NCBI GenBank assembly: GCA_964597775.1
Contig: CAZQZJ010000003.1
Coordinates: 1 to 59,311 of the forward strand
Origin: an uncultured Methanosarcinales archaeon
GTDB lineage: Archaea; Nanobdellota; Nanobdellia; Woesearchaeales; JAGWAF01
Length of the DNA stretch: 59,311 nucleotides
Direction of reading: 5' to 3'
Shown here one piece after another: positions 4,168-58,553 of this stretch. The stretch's first letter is position 1, and each line of letters opens with the position of its first letter. The notes beneath the pieces are model-generated. The model did not search any database and was not told the DNA's origin. It saw only the letters and a list, made by a program, of their open reading frames with translations. The position numbers and the translations under genes were made by a program.

Positions 4168-4593
4168 TCACTTTTTAAGCACGCCCTCAACTGCTTTGAT
4201 AAAATCTTCCGCAGTCTCAATTACATTCTTGGCCTCACCGTAATCTATCCTGATCGGATCAAGACCATAATTGATGGCATGCCTATCAAGGCGAAGTGTA
4301 TTGAGCTCATTCAAAAACCTCAATTCAAGGCGATCGGCATATTGCTCCTTGACATACACGAACAGCGCAAAATGGCTCTTCTCAACATAACCGTCCCGGA
4401 ACAACAAAGACCTCGCGGCATGAAACATGCTTGCGTAGGCATTTGCGACTGCTTCCTCAGGGACTATCTTCAGGACCTTTTTAGCCACCTCAATCTTATG
4501 CCATGCCCTCTCGATCGATTTTGCCGCCTTCTCATTATCCGGGACGTCCCGCCTGAGAAGACCCTTTGCAACACATTGTTTGATGTCCATCAT
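4168..4593 (-). CDS. HEPN domain protein (putative toxin)
   Basis: AYASMFHAARSLL...KSH and Rx4HxxxY-like LRLDRHAINY; overlaps the upstream MNT gene. Confidence 0.85.
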   Translation of the reverse strand: MMDIKQCVAKGLLRRDVPDNEKAAKSIERAWHKIEVAKKVLKIVPEEAVANAYASMFHAARSLLFRDGYVEKSHFALFVYVKEQYADRLELRFLNELNTLRLDRHAINYGLDPIRIDYGEAKNVIETAEDFIKAVEGVLKK

Positions 4594-5138
4594 CTCACCA
4601 CAGGAATCTCTCCATGAATCGCGATGCCTCCAATGACCACGTTATCATAGAACGCCTTGTCGTCACGGGCCTTGACCTTCCATTGCGAAGGCGTGAATTG
4701 CATCCATGACACCTCACGATCCAAGACTTTCTCCGATTTTAGCCCGTTGAAGGAAACATTTGACCGGGAGATAATCACGATATCCACATCGCTGTCGGGC
4801 ATATCTGTTCCGCGCGCCACCGAGCCGAACAAAATGACTGACAATATCGCCGGGTTCTTTTTGAGGAGCTCCTCGATCAAACCAACCTCATGGATTCGCC
4901 CAAGAGACAGGGACGCTTTAAGATGCCGAACCAGAACATTATCTCTGTCCAGTTCACACAGGATCATCCTTCCAAGGGGCGTTCGCTTCACCAACCGATA
5001 ATCAGCCAAATAGTCGACTACGCGCTTAGCCGACGTGAGCCCTACACCCGCTCGCTTAGCTATCACGGTCATCGATTCGGGATGCTTTGTTTGCGACATG
5101 CTTTCAAAAACACGGAAAAGGGCATAAGATCGGATCAT
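4590..5138 (-). CDS. wHTH plus minimal nucleotidyltransferase (MNT) antitoxin
   Basis: SVILFGSVARG...DSDVDIVII MNT motif and N-terminal HTH (IAKRAGVGLTSAKRVV); ATG at 5138 with an SD-like GGTGTGGG. Confidence 0.88.
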   Translation of the reverse strand: MIRSYALFRVFESMSQTKHPESMTVIAKRAGVGLTSAKRVVDYLADYRLVKRTPLGRMILCELDRDNVLVRHLKASLSLGRIHEVGLIEELLKKNPAILSVILFGSVARGTDMPDSDVDIVIISRSNVSFNGLKSEKVLDREVSWMQFTPSQWKVKARDDKAFYDNVVIGGIAIHGEIPVVR

Positions 5139-5183
5139 ACACCCACACCAATGATCCTTCCTTAAATGGTTTTCCATTATTCA

Positions 5184-23725: not shown

Positions 23726-24493
23726 ATGAATTACCTAAGAGTTATCAGCCCTGGATTTGACACAGGAGCCAGACACATGGCATGGGACGAAGCCATACTT
23801 AACCATGTGAACACAAACCAAAGCCCACCAACACTTCGACTCTACTACTTCAACCCACCAGCAGTCACACTATCATCAGAATGCCACCTAGATATTATCA
23901 ATAAAACTACCTGCACACAACAACAAATTGATATTATCCGCAGACCAACTGGAGGATCAGCACTTTTTCACAACAGAAAAGATCTTGCTTATTCATTTAT
24001 CGCACCAATCTATTTATTTGAAGAACAAAAACCAGTAAAGATAATGCGCAATATCTGTAACCAAATTGCTAGTGCATTTACTACAATTGGAATCCCTGCA
24101 TATCTTAACCAAAAAAGCAATACCAATATCCTTATCGACGGGAAAAAAATAAGTGGAAGCGCAAGCATGATCAAAACCAACGCCATACTTGTCCACGGAA
24201 GCATCTTTCACAATATTGACACAATACTCATCAGTTCACTAATTAACATCCCACAACAAGATCTTGAAAACAGAATGATTGGAATTTCCACATACACCAA
24301 CAACCATGCTGAAATCCATAATGCCATTATCAACGCACTCTCATACAAACTTGAAATCAGAATTAATGAAACAGCAACTGAATCTGAACATCATGACATG
24401 CACAGAATACTCCAAGACAAATTCAGCACTACATCAGAATGGCTCACAGCAGGAAAGAAACACAAAAAATACTGTGGATCAAGCATCGAATGA
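23726..24493 (+). CDS. Lipoate-protein ligase A / LipM-like octanoyltransferase
   Basis: HMAWDEAIL, TLRLY, RRPTGGSALFH, GKKISGSA and VHGSI; adjacent to the dehydrogenase operon. Confidence 0.9.
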   Translation: MNYLRVISPGFDTGARHMAWDEAILNHVNTNQSPPTLRLYYFNPPAVTLSSECHLDIINKTTCTQQQIDIIRRPTGGSALFHNRKDLAYSFIAPIYLFEEQKPVKIMRNICNQIASAFTTIGIPAYLNQKSNTNILIDGKKISGSASMIKTNAILVHGSIFHNIDTILISSLINIPQQDLENRMIGISTYTNNHAEIHNAIINALSYKLEIRINETATESEHHDMHRILQDKFSTTSEWLTAGKKHKKYCGSSIE

Positions 24494-24528
24494 AAAAATG
24501 CTCGGCTGTGCCACAGCCTCGCATTTTT
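24494..24528. terminator. Putative bidirectional terminator
   Basis: AAAAATGC-TC-GGCTGT-GCC-ACAGCC-TC-GCATTTTT between convergent genes. Confidence 0.6.
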
Positions 24529-24549
24529 ATTAAGAGGTAATAAAGACTT

Positions 24550-25923
24550 CTAATCACGTTCAATTAACAACAAATCAGGATCCTCAAGATGCTCCTTTAC
24601 CACATTCATAAAACGCGCAGCCTGTGCACCATCAAGAATCCTATGATCAAATGTTAGTGACAAGGGAAGTACCAACCTAGACATTATCTGATGCTCAACT
24701 ATCCTTGGCAACTCCTGCATTCTTCCCACACCAAGAATTGCAGCCTCAGGAAAATTTACAATTGGAGTAAAATGCGTGCCTCCAATTGAACCAATATTTG
24801 TAATTGTAAAAACACCACCTTTTAGATCAGCAGGATCAAGCTTACGATCTTGCGCCTTTTTCACCAAATCTTGTAATTCTTTAGCAATCTCAAGCACAGA
24901 TTTTGCATCAACAGACTTAATCACTGGAACTAACAAACCATCATCTATATCAACAGCCACACCAATATTGAAATATTTCTTAACAACAACCTCTTCTTGC
25001 ACATCATCAAGCGAAGATGCCAGAATTGGAAACTGCCTTATCCCAGCAACAACAGCCTTAATAATAAACGGCATCAAAGTCAACTTTACTCCTTTTTTAT
25101 CAGCAACAAGCTTCTGCTTTTGACGAATCTCCCACAGATGCGTCACATCAACATCATCCATATGAGTCACTGGAACAACAGATGCAAGAGCTTGAACCAT
25201 ATGCTTTGCAGTTACCTTTCTAATACCAAGTAATTGAATATGATCAATATACCCATACAAATCATACTTACGCACCAATTTTGGAGATGGACTACTATCA
25301 ACTGGAGATAATGAACTATCAGAAACAGATTTAAAACCTGATTTTAGAGCTACAAGAACATCATCCTGAGTAACAACAGCACCTACACCTGAAGGTTTAA
25401 TATTCTTAATATCAACTCCAAGTGACAAAGCTAATTTCCTTACTGCAGGAAGAGCAAGAGGTGAACTTTGCATACCTATTTTCTGATCTGAAGAATTTGA
25501 AACAGAGGCATTTCCTGTTATCAAACCTTTAGTCAAATCACCATTATCCTCAGAAGCTTCTTCTAATTCACCTACAACACCTGACCAGTGTTTTATCTGC
25601 TGCATATCCTTATTCTTAGAAACCACCTGCTGCTTAGACATTAACTCTACCATCCGTCCTCCAGATATTGCAGTAGCAACTACCTCATCATCACTACCAA
25701 TTACCACAAGCACATCACCAACCCTGATTTTCTCACCCTCATTACCAAATCTATTGAGAATCCTACCTTTTTTTGGAGAAGGAATCTCAACAATAGCCTT
25801 ATCAGTCTCAACCTCAAGAAGAACTTGATCTGCATCAACCATATCACCTTGCTTCACATGCCACTTCACAATCTCACCCTCTACAATACCCTCACCAACA
25901 TCAGGAAAACGAAACTCTATCAC
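24550..25923 (-). CDS. pdhC: 2-oxoacid dehydrogenase E2 (dihydrolipoamide acyltransferase)
   Basis: One lipoyl domain (EVETDKA), PSBD (ALPAVRKLA...G...DDV) and catalytic DHRILDG. Substrate specificity not resolved. Confidence 0.93.
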   Translation of the reverse strand: MIEFRFPDVGEGIVEGEIVKWHVKQGDMVDADQVLLEVETDKAIVEIPSPKKGRILNRFGNEGEKIRVGDVLVVIGSDDEVVATAISGGRMVELMSKQQVVSKNKDMQQIKHWSGVVGELEEASEDNGDLTKGLITGNASVSNSSDQKIGMQSSPLALPAVRKLALSLGVDIKNIKPSGVGAVVTQDDVLVALKSGFKSVSDSSLSPVDSSPSPKLVRKYDLYGYIDHIQLLGIRKVTAKHMVQALASVVPVTHMDDVDVTHLWEIRQKQKLVADKKGVKLTLMPFIIKAVVAGIRQFPILASSLDDVQEEVVVKKYFNIGVAVDIDDGLLVPVIKSVDAKSVLEIAKELQDLVKKAQDRKLDPADLKGGVFTITNIGSIGGTHFTPIVNFPEAAILGVGRMQELPRIVEHQIMSRLVLPLSLTFDHRILDGAQAARFMNVVKEHLEDPDLLLIERD

Positions 25924-26894
25924 TGCACCATCACCTGCTTTATCGCACGAACAATCCGAAACATATCAGGAATATAATACTGCTCTAAACGCGCCAAAGG
26001 CATAACTGTATCAAAACCAGTAACACGAACTGGAGATGCCTGCAATGAATACAAACAATGCTCAACAACAACAGCCAAAAGCTCTGCAGCAAACCCACAC
26101 AACCTTGGAGCTTCATTCACAATCACAACCCTACCAGTTTTTTGCACAGATGAGATAATAGCACCCTTATCCAATGGAGAAAGCGTCTGCAGATCAATAA
26201 CCTCAACTGAATACCTATTTGAAACCTCTTGCGCAGCTTCTATACAAGTTCTCATCATCGCACCATAAGAAATCAATGTAAGATCAGAACCCTCCTTAAC
26301 CACACGTGCCTTACCTAATGGAATCACATACTCCTCCTCAGAAACCTCCTCTTTAATTGCACGATACACACGTTTAGGCTCTAAAAATAGCACAGGATCA
26401 GGATCACGAATCGCAGCAACCATCAAACCCTTAGCAGCAAAAGGAGTACTTGGAGTCACTACTTTTAACCCAGGGATATGTGCATAAAAGGCTTCAACAG
26501 ATTCAGAATGATGCTCTAATGCACGAATCCCACCAGTATACGGCGAACGAATCACCATCTGCGCATGAAACCTACCACGAGAACGATTCCTAATCCGCGC
26601 CACATTATTAATAATCTGATCAAAAGCAGGAGCAAGAAAACCCTCAAACTGAATCTCACACACAGGCTTAAGACCAAAACAAGACATACCAAAACACGAA
26701 CCAACAATACCAGACTCAGCAAGAGGCGTATCAAACACACGCTTTTCCCCAAATAAATCCAACAAACCCTGAGTCACACGAAACACACCACCATTTTTTG
26801 CAACATCCTCACCACACACAATAACAGCAGAATCTTTTAACATCTCCTGACGAAGCGCAAGATTAATTGCCTCCACCATATTCAAGCGAGGCAT
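25920..26894 (-). CDS. pdhB: 2-oxoacid dehydrogenase E1 beta
   Basis: GEDVAKNGGVFRVT, DTPLAESG, EHHSES, DPDPVLFLEPK and KTGRVVIV. Confidence 0.95.
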   Translation of the reverse strand: MPRLNMVEAINLALRQEMLKDSAVIVCGEDVAKNGGVFRVTQGLLDLFGEKRVFDTPLAESGIVGSCFGMSCFGLKPVCEIQFEGFLAPAFDQIINNVARIRNRSRGRFHAQMVIRSPYTGGIRALEHHSESVEAFYAHIPGLKVVTPSTPFAAKGLMVAAIRDPDPVLFLEPKRVYRAIKEEVSEEEYVIPLGKARVVKEGSDLTLISYGAMMRTCIEAAQEVSNRYSVEVIDLQTLSPLDKGAIISSVQKTGRVVIVNEAPRLCGFAAELLAVVVEHCLYSLQASPVRVTGFDTVMPLARLEQYYIPDMFRIVRAIKQVMVQ

Positions 26895-28018
26895 TACTTA
26901 CCACCTTCTTTTTTTTCATGCAGAATCTTTATGAGCTCCTGCTTTTGCTCAACCAAATCAGGAGTAGGATACTCATACATCCAATCAAAAAAATCAGTAG
27001 GATCAGGCACTGGAATCTTTTCAAATATCTGTACTTCATCTTCAACTTCCTTTGTCAAAGAAACCACCAGTTCCTTATCCTTTTGCTCTGACCACATCTT
27101 TTTCTGTATCAAAAATTTCTTCAAACGAAGAATTGGATCCTTTAACCTCCACTGCTCAACCTCTTTAGGATCACGATACCTTGATGCATCATCAGCAGTT
27201 GTATGATCTGAAAAACGATATGTTAAACACTCAATAACACTTGGCCCTTTTCCATTCCTTGCTTTTATCAATGCATCACCAACTACCTTAATCACAGCAA
27301 GCACATCCATTCCATCAACCTGAACACCACTAATACCTGCAGCAAACGCCTTCTGAGCAAGAGTCTGCGCCATACTCTGACACGAACAAGGAAACCTACC
27401 TTTACATATAGCACATGAACGAGAAACTGAGATTGCCCACTGATTATTCTCAATAACAAAAACCACTGGAGCCACAAATACACCTGCAAAATTCATTGCT
27501 TCACTTACATCACCAACAGAGGTTGCACCATCACCAAGAAACACTAACGAAGCCCAAGACTCACCCTTCAAACTCGCAGCCATTGCAGCACCAACTGCAT
27601 GCAAGGCCTGCGAACCAACACAGATCTGAATTGGAAACAGATTCACAGCCTTAGGCAGATTCATACTCCTCTCATCACCAGCACTATACTGATACAACTG
27701 ATGCAAAGGAGCACCTCTTGCAATAAACGCACCCCAATCACGATACAAAGGAAAAATCCAATCATCCTTACCCACTGCATACGCAGCACCAACCTGAGTC
27801 GCTTCCTGACCTTGACAAGAAGCAAGGGTTCCTACACGACCCTGACGCTGCAACAACAACCCCTTACTATCAAATAGTCTTGTACGCAACATTAACCTAT
27901 AAACCCCTAGCAACTCCTTATTTGATATATCAGGAAGAAACTTAGCATCTACTTTACCATTTTCATCAAGAACCTGAACATATTCAATTTTATACCTTGC
28001 CACTACCTTCTTAGACAT
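26894..28018 (-). CDS. pdhA: 2-oxoacid dehydrogenase E1 alpha with a Cys4 insertion
   Basis: RQGR...GQEA, TPP motif GDGATS...ENNQWAIS and YRFSDHTTADDASRYR; ATG at 28018 (MSKKVV). Confidence 0.95.
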   Translation of the reverse strand: MSKKVVARYKIEYVQVLDENGKVDAKFLPDISNKELLGVYRLMLRTRLFDSKGLLLQRQGRVGTLASCQGQEATQVGAAYAVGKDDWIFPLYRDWGAFIARGAPLHQLYQYSAGDERSMNLPKAVNLFPIQICVGSQALHAVGAAMAASLKGESWASLVFLGDGATSVGDVSEAMNFAGVFVAPVVFVIENNQWAISVSRSCAICKGRFPCSCQSMAQTLAQKAFAAGISGVQVDGMDVLAVIKVVGDALIKARNGKGPSVIECLTYRFSDHTTADDASRYRDPKEVEQWRLKDPILRLKKFLIQKKMWSEQKDKELVVSLTKEVEDEVQIFEKIPVPDPTDFFDWMYEYPTPDLVEQKQELIKILHEKKEGGK

Positions 28019-28955
28019 GATGCATATCCCCCAAAAACAACTCTGCAGCACGATAACTTGAACGCACCAGAGGACCAGCAGCCACATATCTAAAACCACA
28101 AGAGAGTGCCTCTTGCTTTAACACATCAAAATCCTGAGGCGAGACAAACTCCACAACAGGAATATGCCTAGGTGATGGCTGAAGATACTGACCAAAGGTC
28201 ACAACCTCAACACCAACTGCACGCAAATCAACACATGCAACAAGAACCTCACCTCTTGATTCACCAAGACCAAGCATCAAGGAAGACTTTGTAATAATAG
28301 AAGAATCCTTCTGCTTTACAAAATGTAGTACCTCAAGTGATTGTTCATACCCAGCACGAGGATCCCGCACCTTTCTTTGCAAGGACTGCACAGTCTCGAG
28401 ATTATGCGCAATCACATCAGGTTTGGCATCAATAATGATCTGCAAGAGTTCACGATTACCACAAAAATCAGGGATAAGAACCTCAATCTTAATAGTTGGA
28501 CACTGCTGCCTCACCTCCTTAATGCATGCTGCAATATGATATGCTCCTTGATCCTTAAGATCATCACGATCAACACTTGTAATCACAACATAAGACAAAC
28601 CAAGTTGTGCAATTGCAGATCCAATCCTTTGTGGCTCATGCGGATCAAGAGGTTTTGCAGGAAAACCAGTCTTGACATGACAGAATTTACACGCCCTTGT
28701 ACAGGTATCACCCATTACCATCACTGTCACAGTACCACCAGACCAACACTCACTAATATTCGGACACCTAGCTTCTTCACAAACAGTCACTAGATTTAAT
28801 GATCTTAACAATGATTTGATCTCTACATACTTTTTACCTGGAGGACGAATCTTAAACCAGGCAGGTAAGCTATGCTTAACTAACAACCTACTTTTTTCAT
28901 CAATACCTGACACTACCTGCAATACATTATTTGCACTCATCATCCTGTAGCCCAT
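28011..28955 (-). CDS. lipA: Lipoyl synthase
   Basis: CEEARCPNISEC auxiliary cluster, CTRACKFC radical SAM motif, HNLETV, GQYLQP and RSSY. Confidence 0.96.
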   Translation of the reverse strand: MGYRMMSANNVLQVVSGIDEKSRLLVKHSLPAWFKIRPPGKKYVEIKSLLRSLNLVTVCEEARCPNISECWSGGTVTVMVMGDTCTRACKFCHVKTGFPAKPLDPHEPQRIGSAIAQLGLSYVVITSVDRDDLKDQGAYHIAACIKEVRQQCPTIKIEVLIPDFCGNRELLQIIIDAKPDVIAHNLETVQSLQRKVRDPRAGYEQSLEVLHFVKQKDSSIITKSSLMLGLGESRGEVLVACVDLRAVGVEVVTFGQYLQPSPRHIPVVEFVSPQDFDVLKQEALSCGFRYVAAGPLVRSSYRAAELFLGDMHHV

Positions 28956-32296: not shown

Positions 32297-33370
32297 TTAT
32301 AGTTTACACAAACTAATTGGCTTTCTTGTATCATCATAAAAACCAGATCTGCATTTGAGTTCAGGCTTACAATCAAAATCAGTGTTGCAACCAATGTTCT
32401 CTGATCTTGCTCTTTTTGGAGAACAAACCTTTGATTTATACAAATCATGGTATAAACAATCTATTTGCAAAGATTCTTTTTTCCCACCCCTTCCTAATAT
32501 TTCTTGAGCACACTCATCCTTTTTTTTACAGGATTCATTTAATCCACTAAACTCTGGTAAACAAATCCAAATTGGCTTATTTGTCTCATCATAAAAACCA
32601 GGCTTACAAACTAAAGACACAGCACAATCACTATTGGAGTTACATATAACATTCTTAGGCCGAGATGTCATAACTTGGCATACCTTTGATTTATAATCCT
32701 CATGGTACAAACATTTCAAACTAGGATCACACTCCACATTTCCACCACATACCTCATTTAACAATGCAAACTCTGGTTTGCATAACCCAATGGGCTTATT
32801 GGTCTCATCATAAAAACCAGACTTGCAGACTAAAGACACAGTGCAATCACTATTAGAATTACAGATAACATTGTTTAGACGCTTATTTCCAAAGGTACAA
32901 ATCTTGGTCTTAAAATCATCATGATATAAACAATCTGAGGATACAATCTTATTATCCTTATCAAGAAGCCTACACTCACTGCTTTTTATACAGCTTTGAT
33001 TAAAACCCTTAAACTCTGGCTGACATAAACTAATTTTCTTACCTTGATTGTCTCTAAATCCTTTAATACACCCAAGTCCTAACTGACAGTCACTATTTAA
33101 CGAGCATTCTAGACCAGAAACCCTATTATGCTTTGGAATACAAACGTTTCCTTGCTTATCTGAACTATACCCACATTCTGTAGATTCACACTCACTATCA
33201 CTCTGACAAGGCACTTCTAATGCATTATAAGAAGCTCTTAGATCGACATCACTCACTTCAAAACCAGTAATAGAAGTATGATATTTGGAAACTGTAAACA
33301 TAGAAAAGATACTGACAACGAGTACAAAAAATAATATAATAAGCTCTGAATGACTATTCATTACAATCAC
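32297..33370 (-). CDS. Membrane-anchored or secreted Cys-rich repeat protein
   Basis: N-terminal TM plus ITG motif, about 9 C-x5-C-x5-C-type units, and a 219-nt internal tandem repeat (32583 versus 32802). Confidence 0.85.
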   Translation of the reverse strand: MIVMNSHSELIILFFVLVVSIFSMFTVSKYHTSITGFEVSDVDLRASYNALEVPCQSDSECESTECGYSSDKQGNVCIPKHNRVSGLECSLNSDCQLGLGCIKGFRDNQGKKISLCQPEFKGFNQSCIKSSECRLLDKDNKIVSSDCLYHDDFKTKICTFGNKRLNNVICNSNSDCTVSLVCKSGFYDETNKPIGLCKPEFALLNEVCGGNVECDPSLKCLYHEDYKSKVCQVMTSRPKNVICNSNSDCAVSLVCKPGFYDETNKPIWICLPEFSGLNESCKKKDECAQEILGRGGKKESLQIDCLYHDLYKSKVCSPKRARSENIGCNTDFDCKPELKCRSGFYDDTRKPISLCKL

Positions 33371-55059: not shown

Positions 55060-57702
55060 ATGAAAAAGCTAACCTATTATGGACTAATCATCCTCATCAT
55101 ATTCTTATCAGTAAAGGCTGCACTAGCACAAGGAATTGATATAGAAATCACCACATCACAATTACCATCTCCCCCATGCACGCCACAAATCTTTGATCTG
55201 AACATTATCAATCTCGAAACTGAATTTATTGATGAATACACCTTTAATTTAGACCAACTCAATGATTTCGCCACCTTTTCTAAACCCTCTCTAACACTTG
55301 CACCAGAACAAATTGGAACAACACGATTAAGTATTATCCTACCATGCGACCAATACGGACGATTTGACATACAACTTCAAACCAAAAACCAAGGCAGCAA
55401 CGAGATATTTCTAACACCACTTATTTTTGAAATCTTACCAACAGGCATTCCAAAGATAGCACCAGATGTTGATATTATTATCATCCCAGAAAATAAAAGT
55501 CAAGCCAAGATTAGAGTAAAAAACCTTGGCAATGAAGATACTACCTACAAGGTGAGTGTAGAGGATGCTGATTTTGTCAATGCATCAGTTACCCAAATCA
55601 GCATACCAGGCGGTGAAGAATCATCTTTTAAACTTATTATTGACCCACCAAAAGAACTCAGATTTCAAGACTACCCAATAACCATTGTATTACAGACCAC
55701 ATCCACTGGAATTGAGTATGCACGCCAGATCATTCTTAGACACCAAAAAGAATCCAAACTTAAAACACTCTTCACACAACAAATCATTTCAATCCTTGCT
55801 AGCATATGCTTAATAGGACTAGCAATATTTGGAACCACCAGACTCAAACACCACCTTAACAACACAAAAGATGAACGATTACAACGAAGATTAGAACGCA
55901 AAGCACAAAAAGAAGCTGCAAAAGAAGAAAGACGCCAAACAAAGAAGCAGAAAAGACTTGAAAACATAAGACAACAACAAGCAAAGGAATTAGCTAAACT
56001 TACTCTCAAGGAAGAAAGACAATTAGCACGAACCAAAGCCAAACACGAACAATGGCACACAGCACTTATTCCTATCTTAGAAAAAGAGATTAAACAAGAA
56101 AATCTAGTAATACCAAAAACTTCACAGGATAGACCAGGAAGAAAATTATTTTGGCTAATCACTACAATTATTGTTATCTTATTAGGAATAGGAGGATACA
56201 CTATTCGTGATGTCCTACCTGAATACCTTATCTTTATTACCAGCGGATTTTTAATGGGAATTACATGCCTTTTACTCTACAAATTCATAACTAAAAGACG
56301 AACTGAATGGCTAAAAATAAAACTCTTTAATGAGGTTCACACACTTAAACAACAACTGCGTGAAAACCTCACAAGAGAAAATATTGTTGTAAAAAAAACA
56401 GATATTAAATTATTACGCGGATCTCACACCAAACAATGGCTTGTACTTGGCATATTTATTATTATCCTATTTGGAATAAGTTTAACATCCTGGCTTTTTA
56501 GAGAAACCATAGCAAACCAGGCATTGATGCTAACTCTAGCAACAGCAGGTTCTGCAACACTTCTTTTTATCTTAGGATGCATTAGCACTTATCAGCAACA
56601 CAAAAATACAACCATCACCCCATTAGGAGACATTCCTACAAATAGACTTGTAAACCTTAACACACACCACAACAGTGGCCTAACAAACTGCACTATCAAA
56701 ATAAAATCAAGCACTGAAGGACTTATTATTGGCACATATATACACCACTCACAACCCACATTCACTGACCCAGACGGAATTCCATACAAATTCATAGAAC
56801 TACGATCAAATGCAGACAGAAACATTGAAAGAATACAATTAACATTTTCCATACCAAAATCCTGGCTAAAACACAACACCATAACAAAAGAAGCAGTCAT
56901 ACTACAACGCTACAGCGGAGGACGATGGAAACCGCTTACTACACAAGAAATAAACGAAGACCTAACAAAAATTATATACAACGCTGAATCTGAGGGCATT
57001 GGCTTTTTTGCTATTAGCGGCAAATCAGAACCCAAACCAAAACCAACAAACAAGCAACCTCCTACTGAACCTGAAATAAAGATTCGACGAAAGATTCTAG
57101 CACCTGAAAAGGTTGACGCACTTTTTGAAACCAGAACATCAAAAAGAATGCTACCAACAAAAAAAATAGCCATTATACTCGGAATCTTACTTATCCTCCT
57201 TAGCCTGGTAGCAGGTTCATACTATCTTCTCCTCCAACAGATACAGATTCAACCAAAACAAACAACAATTGATACAACACTAGAAAATCTAAGCAACGAA
57301 ATTTCTCAAACCACTAGAGAGATTGCTGGTATTACAAATTTATCAGGCGGCATACCAAACCAGCTTATTAATGGATCTGCAACCCTAATTAACCTTAACC
57401 AATACTTCCAAGACCCTGAACAAGAATCACTAATCTTTTCAAACACACCTGCAGAAAACCTTACTATTTCCTATGAAAACGGTATTGCAACTATTAACTC
57501 AAAACCAGGATTTAGTGGAGATGAAATCATCTTATTTACAGCAACTGACCCTTATAACAACAGTGTATCATCAAACCCAGTAATTATATCAATAATCCAG
57601 CAACCCACACAAAAAGTTATTTCTTCAAACCTGCTAATTATTATTGCCTTTGGATTAGTCTTCATTACCCTAATTATTGCACTCTTATTCCTTCGACGCT
57701 GA
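55060..57702 (+). CDS. Multi-pass surface protein with a PGF-pre-PGF-like domain
   Basis: Signal peptide, two Ig-like domains, TM, charged coil, two TM hairpins, IPKSWL...LQRYSGGRWKPL...GFFAIS, cadherin-like domain and C-terminal TM. Confidence 0.8.
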   Translation: MKKLTYYGLIILIIFLSVKAALAQGIDIEITTSQLPSPPCTPQIFDLNIINLETEFIDEYTFNLDQLNDFATFSKPSLTLAPEQIGTTRLSIILPCDQYGRFDIQLQTKNQGSNEIFLTPLIFEILPTGIPKIAPDVDIIIIPENKSQAKIRVKNLGNEDTTYKVSVEDADFVNASVTQISIPGGEESSFKLIIDPPKELRFQDYPITIVLQTTSTGIEYARQIILRHQKESKLKTLFTQQIISILASICLIGLAIFGTTRLKHHLNNTKDERLQRRLERKAQKEAAKEERRQTKKQKRLENIRQQQAKELAKLTLKEERQLARTKAKHEQWHTALIPILEKEIKQENLVIPKTSQDRPGRKLFWLITTIIVILLGIGGYTIRDVLPEYLIFITSGFLMGITCLLLYKFITKRRTEWLKIKLFNEVHTLKQQLRENLTRENIVVKKTDIKLLRGSHTKQWLVLGIFIIILFGISLTSWLFRETIANQALMLTLATAGSATLLFILGCISTYQQHKNTTITPLGDIPTNRLVNLNTHHNSGLTNCTIKIKSSTEGLIIGTYIHHSQPTFTDPDGIPYKFIELRSNADRNIERIQLTFSIPKSWLKHNTITKEAVILQRYSGGRWKPLTTQEINEDLTKIIYNAESEGIGFFAISGKSEPKPKPTNKQPPTEPEIKIRRKILAPEKVDALFETRTSKRMLPTKKIAIILGILLILLSLVAGSYYLLLQQIQIQPKQTTIDTTLENLSNEISQTTREIAGITNLSGGIPNQLINGSATLINLNQYFQDPEQESLIFSNTPAENLTISYENGIATINSKPGFSGDEIILFTATDPYNNSVSSNPVIISIIQQPTQKVISSNLLIIIAFGLVFITLIIALLFLRR

Positions 57703-57776
57703 AAAGAATTCTTAGATGAAAAATGATGACTCACATATCAAGATTTATAAACCAAACACAGATTCAGAGCATAGCC

Positions 57777-57932
57777 GGGGCTGTAGTATAACTTGGCTAG
57801 AATAGGTGGCTCCAGTCATGGAGCGATGAGCTGCAGTAATCTGTAGCAATGAAATAAACCTATGGTCTGTTGAAGCCTTTGCTTCAAGGAAGAGACCACC
57901 GGATCAGGGTTCAAATCCCTGCAGCCCCACCA
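57777..57932 (+). tRNA. tRNA-Trp(CCA) with a canonical 37/38 intron (57816-57894) and encoded CCA
   Basis: GGGGCTG/CAGCCCC-A-CCA; anticodon stem GGTGG/CCACC; BHB with central helix CTCC/GAAG (one mismatch) and intron stem CATGGAGC/GCTTCAAG; TTTATAAA about 30 nt upstream. Confidence 0.95.
57816..57894 (+). ncRNA. Intron-encoded box C/D-like guide RNA (putative Cm34/Cm39)
   Basis: TGGAGC-g-ATGA and TGGTCT-g-TTGA: antisense elements place C34 and C39 opposite the fifth nt upstream of D-like boxes. Confidence 0.55.
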
Positions 57933-57965
57933 TTTCTTTAACCACAATTTAATTTATGATTTAAT

Positions 57966-58553
57966 TTATGCATACGGTGCCTTTCGCTGTTCTTCCCTAC
58001 GATTACGCTGCATTGTAGCCATAAGCCGCTCAAGCGTATCAATCTTAGCAAGCAATTCACGCTTGTTCTTATCCTCAGCAAGCAACATCTTATGATGCTG
58101 CGTAAGCTCAAAATCCTCTTTTTTAATTACACCAACAACCTCAACAAGACGAGATATATGCGTGTTAAGTTGGACAAGATTTTTTCCAACAGATTCAATA
58201 TCAGCCTTAAGATTTATTACATGTGTTTTTTCTACCTCAAGATTTTTACCATACTTTAGAAATTCATCAGTTAACTCCTTTTCAAACCTCTCAAGCATGA
58301 TCTTCTGCACTCCTTTATTAATAACCCTAAACTCATCAAGTTCTCTAAGAAGATCTGATTTAAACTTCACAAGATTCTCATGATAACTTGTAAAAACCTC
58401 TTCTTGATCTTTATTCTTCTTTGCAAGCACACTAATCTCTTTTTTGTACTGAATAGACAATTCAACAACAAGCTTTTTTTGCTCAACTAACTCCTTGCTA
58501 AGAGAATCAATACCCTCCTTAAGATCAAGGATCTCTTTTATTTTGCCAAACAT
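57966..58553 (-). CDS. Coiled-coil hypothetical protein
   Basis: 195 aa, continuous heptads, ATG start. Confidence 0.8.
   Translation of the reverse strand: MFGKIKEILDLKEGIDSLSKELVEQKKLVVELSIQYKKEISVLAKKNKDQEEVFTSYHENLVKFKSDLLRELDEFRVINKGVQKIMLERFEKELTDEFLKYGKNLEVEKTHVINLKADIESVGKNLVQLNTHISRLVEVVGVIKKEDFELTQHHKMLLAEDKNKRELLAKIDTLERLMATMQRNRREEQRKAPYA

Follow-up and report, generated by a model that had tools for sequence, protein, structure and literature searches.

A probable circularly permuted ('inside-out') box C/D guide RNA in an archaeal tRNA-Trp intron

Among introns that modify the RNA in which they reside, the tRNA-Trp intron guide is the textbook example. In its classical form, known from Haloferax volcanii and from Pyrococcus (sR50), it is a box C/D RNA that guides the 2'-O-methylations Cm34 and Um39 (PMC4090602, PMC7994747). 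The tRNA-Trp intron of Sulfolobus solfataricus forms a stable circle and has complementarity to positions 34 and 39, with no consensus boxes (PMC3326292). Nanoarchaeum equitans has 26-27 C/D small RNAs (sRNAs) (PMC3491384), among which sRNA24 and sRNA26 are permuted C/D box sRNAs (Randau 2012, PMC3491384). In addition, a half-mer C/D RNA, with a single kink-turn (K-turn) and one guide, has been used in the crystal structure of a Pyrococcus furiosus C/D ribonucleoprotein with target RNA (PMC6239191). The element considered here is the 79-nt intron of a tRNA-Trp(CCA) gene on contig CAZQZJ010000003.1, in which these elements appear in another order. All coordinates refer to the forward strand of the 59,311-nt stretch of this contig that was analyzed (the window).

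The tRNA-Trp(CCA) gene lies at 57777-57932 on the + strand, as identified by Rfam and ARAGORN. The Rfam tRNA model matches 57777-57929 with 38.8 bits (gathering score 29) and places about 83 inserted bases in the anticodon loop; ARAGORN, when introns are allowed, reports tRNA-Trp(cca) i(38,79) and folds the spliced sequence into a clean tRNA-Trp cloverleaf, while in its default mode it calls no tRNA at 57777-57932. From the Rfam match and from ARAGORN on the precursor and on the spliced sequence, the 5' exon (positions 1-37) is 57777-57815, the intron is 57816-57894, at the canonical 37/38 site, and the 3' exon (positions 38-73) with the CCA end is 57895-57932. Because G57815 and G57894 are identical, the intron limits are ambiguous by 1 nt, and the alternative limits 57815-57893, one base to the left, give the same product. 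The anticodon loop CUCCAG is 57810-15, with C34 at 57812, and C39 is 57896. As in the classical guide, the intron is located at 37/38 and can pair with positions 34 and 39 of the precursor that contains it.

Relatives were collected by an exon-anchored pattern scan of GTDB species genomes (38 loci) and a similar exon-anchored scan of metagenomes (at least 120 further loci), which when pooled gave at least 125 distinct tRNA-Trp introns with an intact anticodon stem; all counts below that are based on 125, 44, or 69 introns are among the matches listed. Two layouts account for most of them, with at least 69 introns of the classical layout and at least 44 of the layout found in the window. The classical order is box C, the guide to position 39, box D', box C', the guide to position 34, and box D. 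For instance, locus L043 reads UUAGGU, AUGAUUA (C), CAAGAGGGUCAU, CUGA (D'), CGU, AUGAUGA (C'), GUAACUGGAGCG, AUGA (D), CCUAC, and a terminal GAAGAG. The permuted order is a short linker, (U)GGAGCG, NNGA, a hairpin, NNN-GA, a spacer, a GGU-type arm, a second hairpin, and N-GAAGA-K, with the anti-C34 arm first (5') and the anti-C39 arm after the NNN-GA box. The linear order 5'-C, guide, D', C', guide, D-3', in which the termini form the C/D stem, is not that of the window's intron, nor does the intron follow the classical rule by which the first guide addresses position 39 with D' and the last addresses position 34 with D. An initial annotation of this DNA had described the guide order as reversed relative to the Haloferax intron, and this holds against Haloferacaceae loci, L006, and 61 classical introns; the 39-first (D'), 34-last (D) order that it had given as known is indeed that of the Haloferacaceae loci and L006. 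Named carriers of the permuted order belong to Woesearchaeota, Nanoarchaeota/Nanoarchaeia, Altiarchaeales/Altiarchaeota, and Aenigmatarchaeota.

A covariance model was built from the 11 sequences closest to the window (its subclade). The model matches 34 permuted loci and none of 56 non-permuted loci, nearly all of which have the classical order (E up to 0.01). In the resulting alignment of 34 sequences, 94.2% of cells are paired, against 75.1% in shuffles and 36-48% in slid controls, and the covariation score is 0.380 against 0.102 in shuffles, with 0 of 500 shuffles as high. This alignment was fitted to the model and is biased towards the structure; independent anchor-based counts, given below, agree with it. 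These data indicate that the permutation is real. The reading preferred here, with a probability of about 0.7, is that the intron is a circularly permuted, or 'inside-out', archaeal tRNA-Trp intron box C/D guide.

The center of the intron (57826-57855) has, from sequence and covariation, the features of a C/D K-turn, in which a C box (consensus RUGAUGA) and a D box (CUGA) give tandem sheared G.A pairs next to a 3-nt bulge and a flanking stem. The D box AUGA (57826-57829) is the non-bulged strand. Hairpin 1 (57830-57847; 7 bp between 57830-36 and 57841-47, loop UAAU, from predicted folds) is the closed 'terminal' stem of the K-turn. The C box (57848-57855, defined by comparison) consists of the bulge AAU (57848-50), the sheared GA (57851-52), and then AAU, with the 7-mer AUGAAAU at 57849-55. 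The first box has GA at positions 3-4 in 44/44 permuted introns and otherwise varies (AUGA in 23, CUGA in 14, also GUGA, UUGA, UGGA, CGGA, AGGA, and CCGA), and since GA alone is kept it is assigned as D-type; in Altiarchaeota it is the consensus CUGA. The downstream box reads AUGAUUA, AUGAUGA, AUGACGA, or AUGAAUA across the permuted family, that is, a C box. In 40 of the 44 introns, a hairpin with 3 bp or more leads into a 3-nt bulge and then GA. Hairpin 1 has double changes at 7/7 pairs in the model alignment, and an automatic parser, which mis-parsed a few, returned 30 distinct stem sequences. Covariation extends into the K-turn itself, as position 4n (D-box position 1) covaries with 4b (the C-box base two after GA), A occurring with U and C with G; the two are paired in 24/40 introns against 15.8 in shuffles, and 20 of 10,000 shuffles reach 24. 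In addition, a G at D-box position 2 is accompanied by a C at C-box position 3b in 3/3 cases.

The same strings recur in the classical introns. The guide and D box of the window, UGGAGCG-AUGA, are identical to those of the commonest classical introns, and the commonest C box of the permuted family, AUGAUUA, is the classical C box, of which the window's AUGAAAU is a degenerate copy. Because the guide-D and C strings are the same as in classical introns, the central pair corresponds to the terminal C/D motif, except that a loop closes its stem. The K-turn geometry that had been proposed for ATGA, stem-loop, and AATGAAA is therefore borne out, and on comparative grounds this unit is judged to be a conserved, covarying K-turn. 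On the other hand, the first guide had been thought to lack a C-box partner; its ATGA is the counterpart of the classical D box, its C box AATGAAA lies across hairpin 1, and the K-turn is complete without circularization. Two other readings of this region were discarded. A 5' C box at GCGATGA (57823-29) is rejected, as relatives have CUGA, GUGA, UGGA, or CGGA there with only GA kept, and the complementarity of the 5' strand of hairpin 1 (GCUGCAG) to tRNA bases 57919-25 is attributed to chance, with no covariation in relatives.

Guide 1, UGGAGC (57819-57824, +), is complementary to positions 31-36 (GCUCCA, 57809-14). G57821, the 5th base upstream of ATGA 57826-29, faces C34, which is the register expected of an antisense element 5' of D or D' whose target is at the 5th nucleotide; C39 takes the corresponding place relative to the start of hairpin 2. 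The string (U)GGAGCG is unchanged in 44/44 permuted introns and is the same string that precedes the classical D box, and both the +5 register to C34 and a one-base gap before the D box are constant in the 44. That the intron guides Cm34 is likely.

Guide 2, UGGUCU (57863-57868, +), is complementary to the 3' splice junction AG/ACCA (57893-98), pairing with the last two intron bases and exon positions 38-41. G57865, the 5th base upstream of TTGA 57870-73, faces C39 (57896), so that both arms are in the +5 register, as had been noted earlier. Since arm 2 includes two intron bases, its substrate would be the unspliced precursor. An anchor independent of pairing (GGU located 7-10 nt beyond the C box's window of 3-nt bulge, GA, and 2 nt) was used to align the arm in 26 introns. 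Against intron positions n-1 and n, 50/52 cells are paired, compared with 31.0 in shuffles (0 of 10,000 as high), and against position 41, 21/26 are paired, compared with 13.1 in shuffles (6 of 10,000 as high). The pairs at n-1 include A:U, U:A, and G:C, those at n include G:C, U:A, C:G, and A:U, and all four Watson-Crick types occur at position 41; in the model alignment, double changes are found at 3/6 pairs of the arm. This covariation argues that the second arm is real. Guidance of methylation at position 39 is proposed more tentatively, as a possibility that falls somewhat short of even odds.

Hairpin 2 (57870-57887, +; 7 bp between 57870-76 and 57881-87, loop CUUU) starts 14 nt after the C box, at the expected D' site. 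Its pairs show double changes at 6/7 positions in the model alignment, and its first columns swap in a compensatory manner (U-A/C-G; G-C/A-U/U-A; A-U/U-A/C-G/G-C). Between the end of the C box and hairpin 2 there are 12 nt in 8 introns, 13 nt in 15, and 14 nt in 5 (the window included), or 12-14 nt in 28/28. Neighboring segments vary widely in length: the 5' linker is 3-16 nt, hairpin 1 with its bulge 13-36 nt, and the segment from hairpin 2 to the splice site 5-34 nt. Classical spacers are 12 nt, and the window retains a spacer of about that length between C and a D'-type site; the constancy is consistent with the spacing that a C/D particle ruler would impose. The base before hairpin 2 (57869) is G in 26/28 permuted introns, and in the arm 2 helix it faces a conserved G at n-2 (57892).

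TTGA (57870-73) had been read as a D-like box, and it is better described as the first four bases of the covarying hairpin 2. UUGA is present in 10/11 members of the window's subclade, and the remaining one, L028, has UUGG with a compensating CCAA. A second C'/D' motif is possible in this subclade only. A K-turn around hairpin 2 was sought with the hairpin as canonical (C) or non-canonical (NC) stem in many registers, and no register puts GA on the non-bulged strand; the sole workable form, with a 5-nt bulge and a 3-bp stem, was rejected as a conserved feature.

Both arms of the window are short, and matches of this kind could be fortuitous in a long intron of the ordinary type. When the intron was shuffled 100,000 times with its dinucleotides preserved, and Watson-Crick arms of 6 bp or more with NNGA at +5 were scored, a C34 arm was found 885 times and a C39 arm 288 times, so that a single 6-bp arm with NNGA occurs in 0.3-0.9% of shuffles. 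Both arms occurred jointly in 1 of the 100,000. Together with the recurrence of the layout in 44 introns with strong covariation, this leaves chance with next to no probability, and the comparative data already refute it.

According to ViennaRNA predictions, the guide-bound fold is the minimum of the precursor, at -64.2 kcal/mol (z = -4.65): arm 1 lies on positions 31-36, arm 2 bridges the 3' junction, and the acceptor stem, the T arm, and the two hairpins are all preserved. A fold constrained to contain the anticodon stem and the splice helix reaches -49.7 kcal/mol. Under the permuted-guide reading, the naked precursor would fold into the guide-bound form, with arm 1 on 31-36 and arm 2 across the 3' splice junction. 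L7Ae could then bind the central K-turn of the precursor, and Nop5-fibrillarin could 2'-O-methylate C34; C39 would perhaps be methylated too, provided that either the base of hairpin 2 or a degenerate D' can serve. The RNA would subsequently refold to the anticodon stem and bulge-helix-bulge, the splicing endonuclease would cut, and the intron would be released.

The same folds allow an explanation that involves no methylation. The K-turn could recruit L7Ae as a fold stabilizer, and the antisense helices could clamp the anticodon loop and the 3' splice site and so time or control splicing, the intron being a C/D relic. The short arms and the missing second box pair fit such a clamp, as does the predicted advantage of 14 kcal/mol of the guide-bound fold over the splice-competent fold. 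A clamp would have no need of the constant +5 register, the one-base gap before the D box, or the 12-14 nt spacer, which together are fibrillarin-ruler geometry, and the identity of the guide and D-box string with that of classical introns is equally unaccounted for. It is regarded as an unlikely alternative to a guide.

The 3' end of the intron, GGAAGAG (57888-57894, +), is the 3' strand of a bulge-helix-bulge motif, in which G57889 pairs with C35, A57890 is opposed to C34, A57891 pairs with U33, and G57892 pairs with C32. The archaeal splice motif is defined by two 3-nt bulges with a 4-bp helix between them (PMC4090602). In the window, the 4-bp helix has one mismatch, the bulges AG/U (5'; A36 G37/U57816, closed by C57817-G57888) and AG/A (3'; A57893 G57894/A38) are correctly placed, and the inner helix is the single C57817-G57888 pair, which amounts to a relaxed bulge-helix-bulge. 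Among the collected introns, 25/44 permuted and 42/69 classical ones end in the seven bases N-GAAG-NN; GAAG pairs with C35, U33, and C32 around the C34 x A mismatch, and the remaining two bases together with A38 form the 3-nt bulge. The A opposite C34 in the central splice helix (GAAG rather than GGAG) is thus conserved at those same counts. It has been reported that tRNA-Trp is 'missing' in Woesearchaeales and Pacearchaeales genomes (bioRxiv 10.64898/2026.05.13.725050). The long intron and relaxed splice motif may contribute to such reports, because a gene of this kind escapes a default tRNA finder.

This splice strand is also the center of a competing proposal, that of the initial annotation, in which AGGAAGA (57887-93) was taken as a C-like box and the guide was held to be activated by splicing. 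In its full form, the permuted intron arose from and works as an RNA circle: across the junction, GGAAGA(G), about 10-11 nt upstream of the D box, doubles as a C or C' box that, by pairing with UUGA (57870-73), creates a second K-turn or kink-loop (K-loop) and a second L7Ae site, and the two-site particle, assembled only after splicing, methylates other precursors in trans. If this holds, a guide RNA would be turned on by being excised. In such a circle, boxes and guides would follow one another as in a circular classical C/D RNA, and in Woesearchaeota-type introns 9-12 nt across the junction separate GGAAGA from the D box. A perfect UGAUGA stands directly before the terminal GAAGAU in L026, L034, L100, and L067 (UGAGGA in others), and two Altiarchaeota introns (L004, L032) have a separate UGAAGAA upstream of a canonical GGAG splice strand. 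There is precedent as well: in other archaea tRNA-Trp introns form stable circles, that of Haloferax is reported to guide methylation (PMC3326292), and sRNA24 of N. equitans is both permuted and circular (PMC3491384).

Other observations count against it. GAAGAG ends the 42/69 classical introns noted above, which have all four boxes elsewhere, so that the splice motif accounts for its presence and AGGAAGA needs no C-box explanation. The UUGA columns covary as a helix, with GA at the site in 8/28 introns, and a K-turn of UUGA and GGAAGA could form only with a 5-nt bulge and once 4 bp of a perfect 7-bp hairpin had been opened. The junction spacing, which is 9-12 nt in Woesearchaeota-type introns only, exceeds 20 nt in Altiarchaeota. 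Furthermore, the D box is already partnered by the C box across hairpin 1, and the C/D K-turn is complete as encoded; only the hypothetical C' upstream of guide 1 would require a circle. Arm 2 needs the unspliced precursor, and circularization is therefore not a prerequisite in cis. Conservation of the boxes among aligned relatives, on which the initial annotation had made its proposal depend, is found for the central D/C pair; the assignment of the outer TTGA and AGGAAGA as boxes fails, although all the motifs that it named are present in the window (TGGAGC 57819-24, ATGA 57826-29, AATGAAA 57848-54, TGGTCT 57863-68, TTGA 57870-73, and AGGAAGA 57887-93). Activation by splicing or circularization finds no specific support in these data and is considered quite unlikely.

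Several points weigh against the intron being a permuted guide. Archaeal C/D particles work best with two symmetric motifs, and among the permuted introns no conserved second (C'/D') K-turn or K-loop was found: the columns of the D' site covary as a helix, and GA is present there in the 8/28 permuted introns compared with 54/61 classical introns. Guide duplexes usually measure about 8-12 bp; both of those in the window have 6 bp, those of the family range over 5-9 bp, and classical anti-34 arms are about 10 bp. Arm 1 is without variation and gives no covariation evidence in either direction, and the window's C box AUGAAAU is the most degenerate of the permuted family. Finally, neither the 59-kb window nor a further 10 kb beyond it encodes fibrillarin, Nop5, or L7Ae. 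A tblastn search with approximate fibrillarin and Nop5 sequences against 1 Mb of the relatives' loci (about 8 kb each) gave no matches and is uninformative. Indirect support for their presence in the genome comes from the use of fibrillarin and Nop5 as single-copy markers that are nearly universal in archaea (PMC9258230) and from the 26-27 C/D sRNAs of N. equitans (PMC3491384). A permissive Rfam scan of 57500-58200 gave no C/D family above noise (best 18 bits against a gathering score of 50), and a regular-expression scan of the window gave no stand-alone classical C/D sRNA.

Other arrangements are present among the relatives. In an Aenigmatarchaeota-like variant (L019:6138-6240, L106, L146), the anti-39 arm (GGGUCU/GGGUAU) is the 5' strand of a long D-C hairpin and is followed by AUGA or UUGA at +5, giving two D-type boxes per one C box; this could be a two-state switch between guiding 34 and guiding 39. 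A Micrarchaeota-like variant (L008, L052, L058, L066, L071, L077, L087, L148) has a central D'-hairpin-C' K-turn with the classical guide order (anti-39 first) and a degenerate 5' C box, AUGUUUA. The scans also matched tRNA-like genes of Iainarchaeum (L003, L015, L017), in which the anticodon-arm region ends in CACCUCCAG and is followed by a 61-64 nt insert that contains the motifs GGUGAUG and UUGAUGA and may be yet another intron layout.

Upstream of the gene, a TATA-like TTTATAAA (57744-57751, +), read from the sequence about 29 nt before the tRNA start, is a probable archaeal promoter, judged from its position only. AUGAUGA, a perfect C-box consensus, is found at 57723-57729, between the end of the open reading frame (ORF) 55060-57702 and this promoter; no D-type partner or guide was found for it, and it is probably a chance occurrence. 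The CCA at 57930-32 is genome-encoded in the window and is not in most relatives. The genes of the window are archaeal (AglB/STT3, ELP3, HisRS, PEP synthase, GAPDH, a pyruvate dehydrogenase cluster, RsmB, and a pseudouridine synthase), and proteins identical to the window's are present on Hainich groundwater metagenome contigs. Among the matches listed, the nearest tRNA-Trp genes of named genomes are those of Nanoarchaeota and Woesearchaeota metagenome-assembled genomes (L025, L016, L002). Three bins labeled 'uncultured Methanosarcinales' (L018, L022, L033) contain a Woesearchaeota-type tRNA-Trp with a permuted intron, and these contigs are probably mis-binned.

Elsewhere in the window, a HEPN-domain gene adjoins an MNT-type nucleotidyltransferase gene at 4168-5177 (-), which together look like a toxin-antitoxin pair. 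Genes for lipoate-protein ligase, 2-oxoacid dehydrogenase E2, E1 beta, and E1 alpha, and lipoyl synthase are clustered at 23726-28955, which looks notable for an apparently small-genome DPANN archaeon, and a RuBisCO large subunit is encoded on a neighboring contig (L159). The ORF 32297-33370 (-) has no Pfam match and contains internal repeats about 220-255 nt apart, with the motif TGGTTTTTATGATGAGAC.AATAAGCC at 32811, 32592, and 32337.

A literature search returned no description of a permuted tRNA-Trp intron guide, which is absence of evidence only. The window intron is best viewed as a new layout of a known device, with the classical tRNA-Trp intron guide and the permuted N. equitans sRNAs as its closest precedents. 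If the permuted-guide reading is correct, selection has kept a single hairpin-closed C/D K-turn, the architecture of the artificial 'half-mer', across several DPANN phyla, and these introns would offer a clean natural experiment on whether a second C'/D' site, or a covalent link between C' and guide, is required by archaeal C/D particles. They would also point to circular intron intermediates, or to tandem duplication, as a route by which guide RNAs are rearranged.

Compared with the classical tRNA-Trp guide, the window intron has the same gene, the same intron position, and both target positions; UGGAGC-N-(A/C)UGA sets C34 at +5, the anti-39 arm spans the 3' splice junction, and the splice strand is of the GAAGAG/GGAG type in both. 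In contrast, the order in the window is the guide to 34, D, hairpin, C, and the guide to 39, its K-turn has an internal hairpin as the closing stem, where the classical one is built from the ends of the intron, and it is without a conserved C'/D' pair; the anti-34 arm is also shorter (6 bp compared with about 10), and position 39 is C instead of U. It shares with sRNA24 and sRNA26 of N. equitans the DPANN lineage, a box D encoded before box C, and a link to circular RNA forms. Those sRNAs, however, are stand-alone genes in which the correct order is said to exist only in the circle, whereas the window element is a tRNA intron with a C/D pair that looks functional as encoded and a layout that extends across several phyla. 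The engineered half-mer (guide, D, stem, C; PMC6239191) has the stem-closed K-turn and single-stranded guide 5' of D that make up 57819-57855 of the window; the half-mer is artificial, while the window element is natural and carries a second arm 3' of its C box. Lastly, short complementarities to both positions and off-consensus boxes are features common to the window intron and that of S. solfataricus, but the window intron differs in having one clearly conserved, bona fide C/D K-turn.

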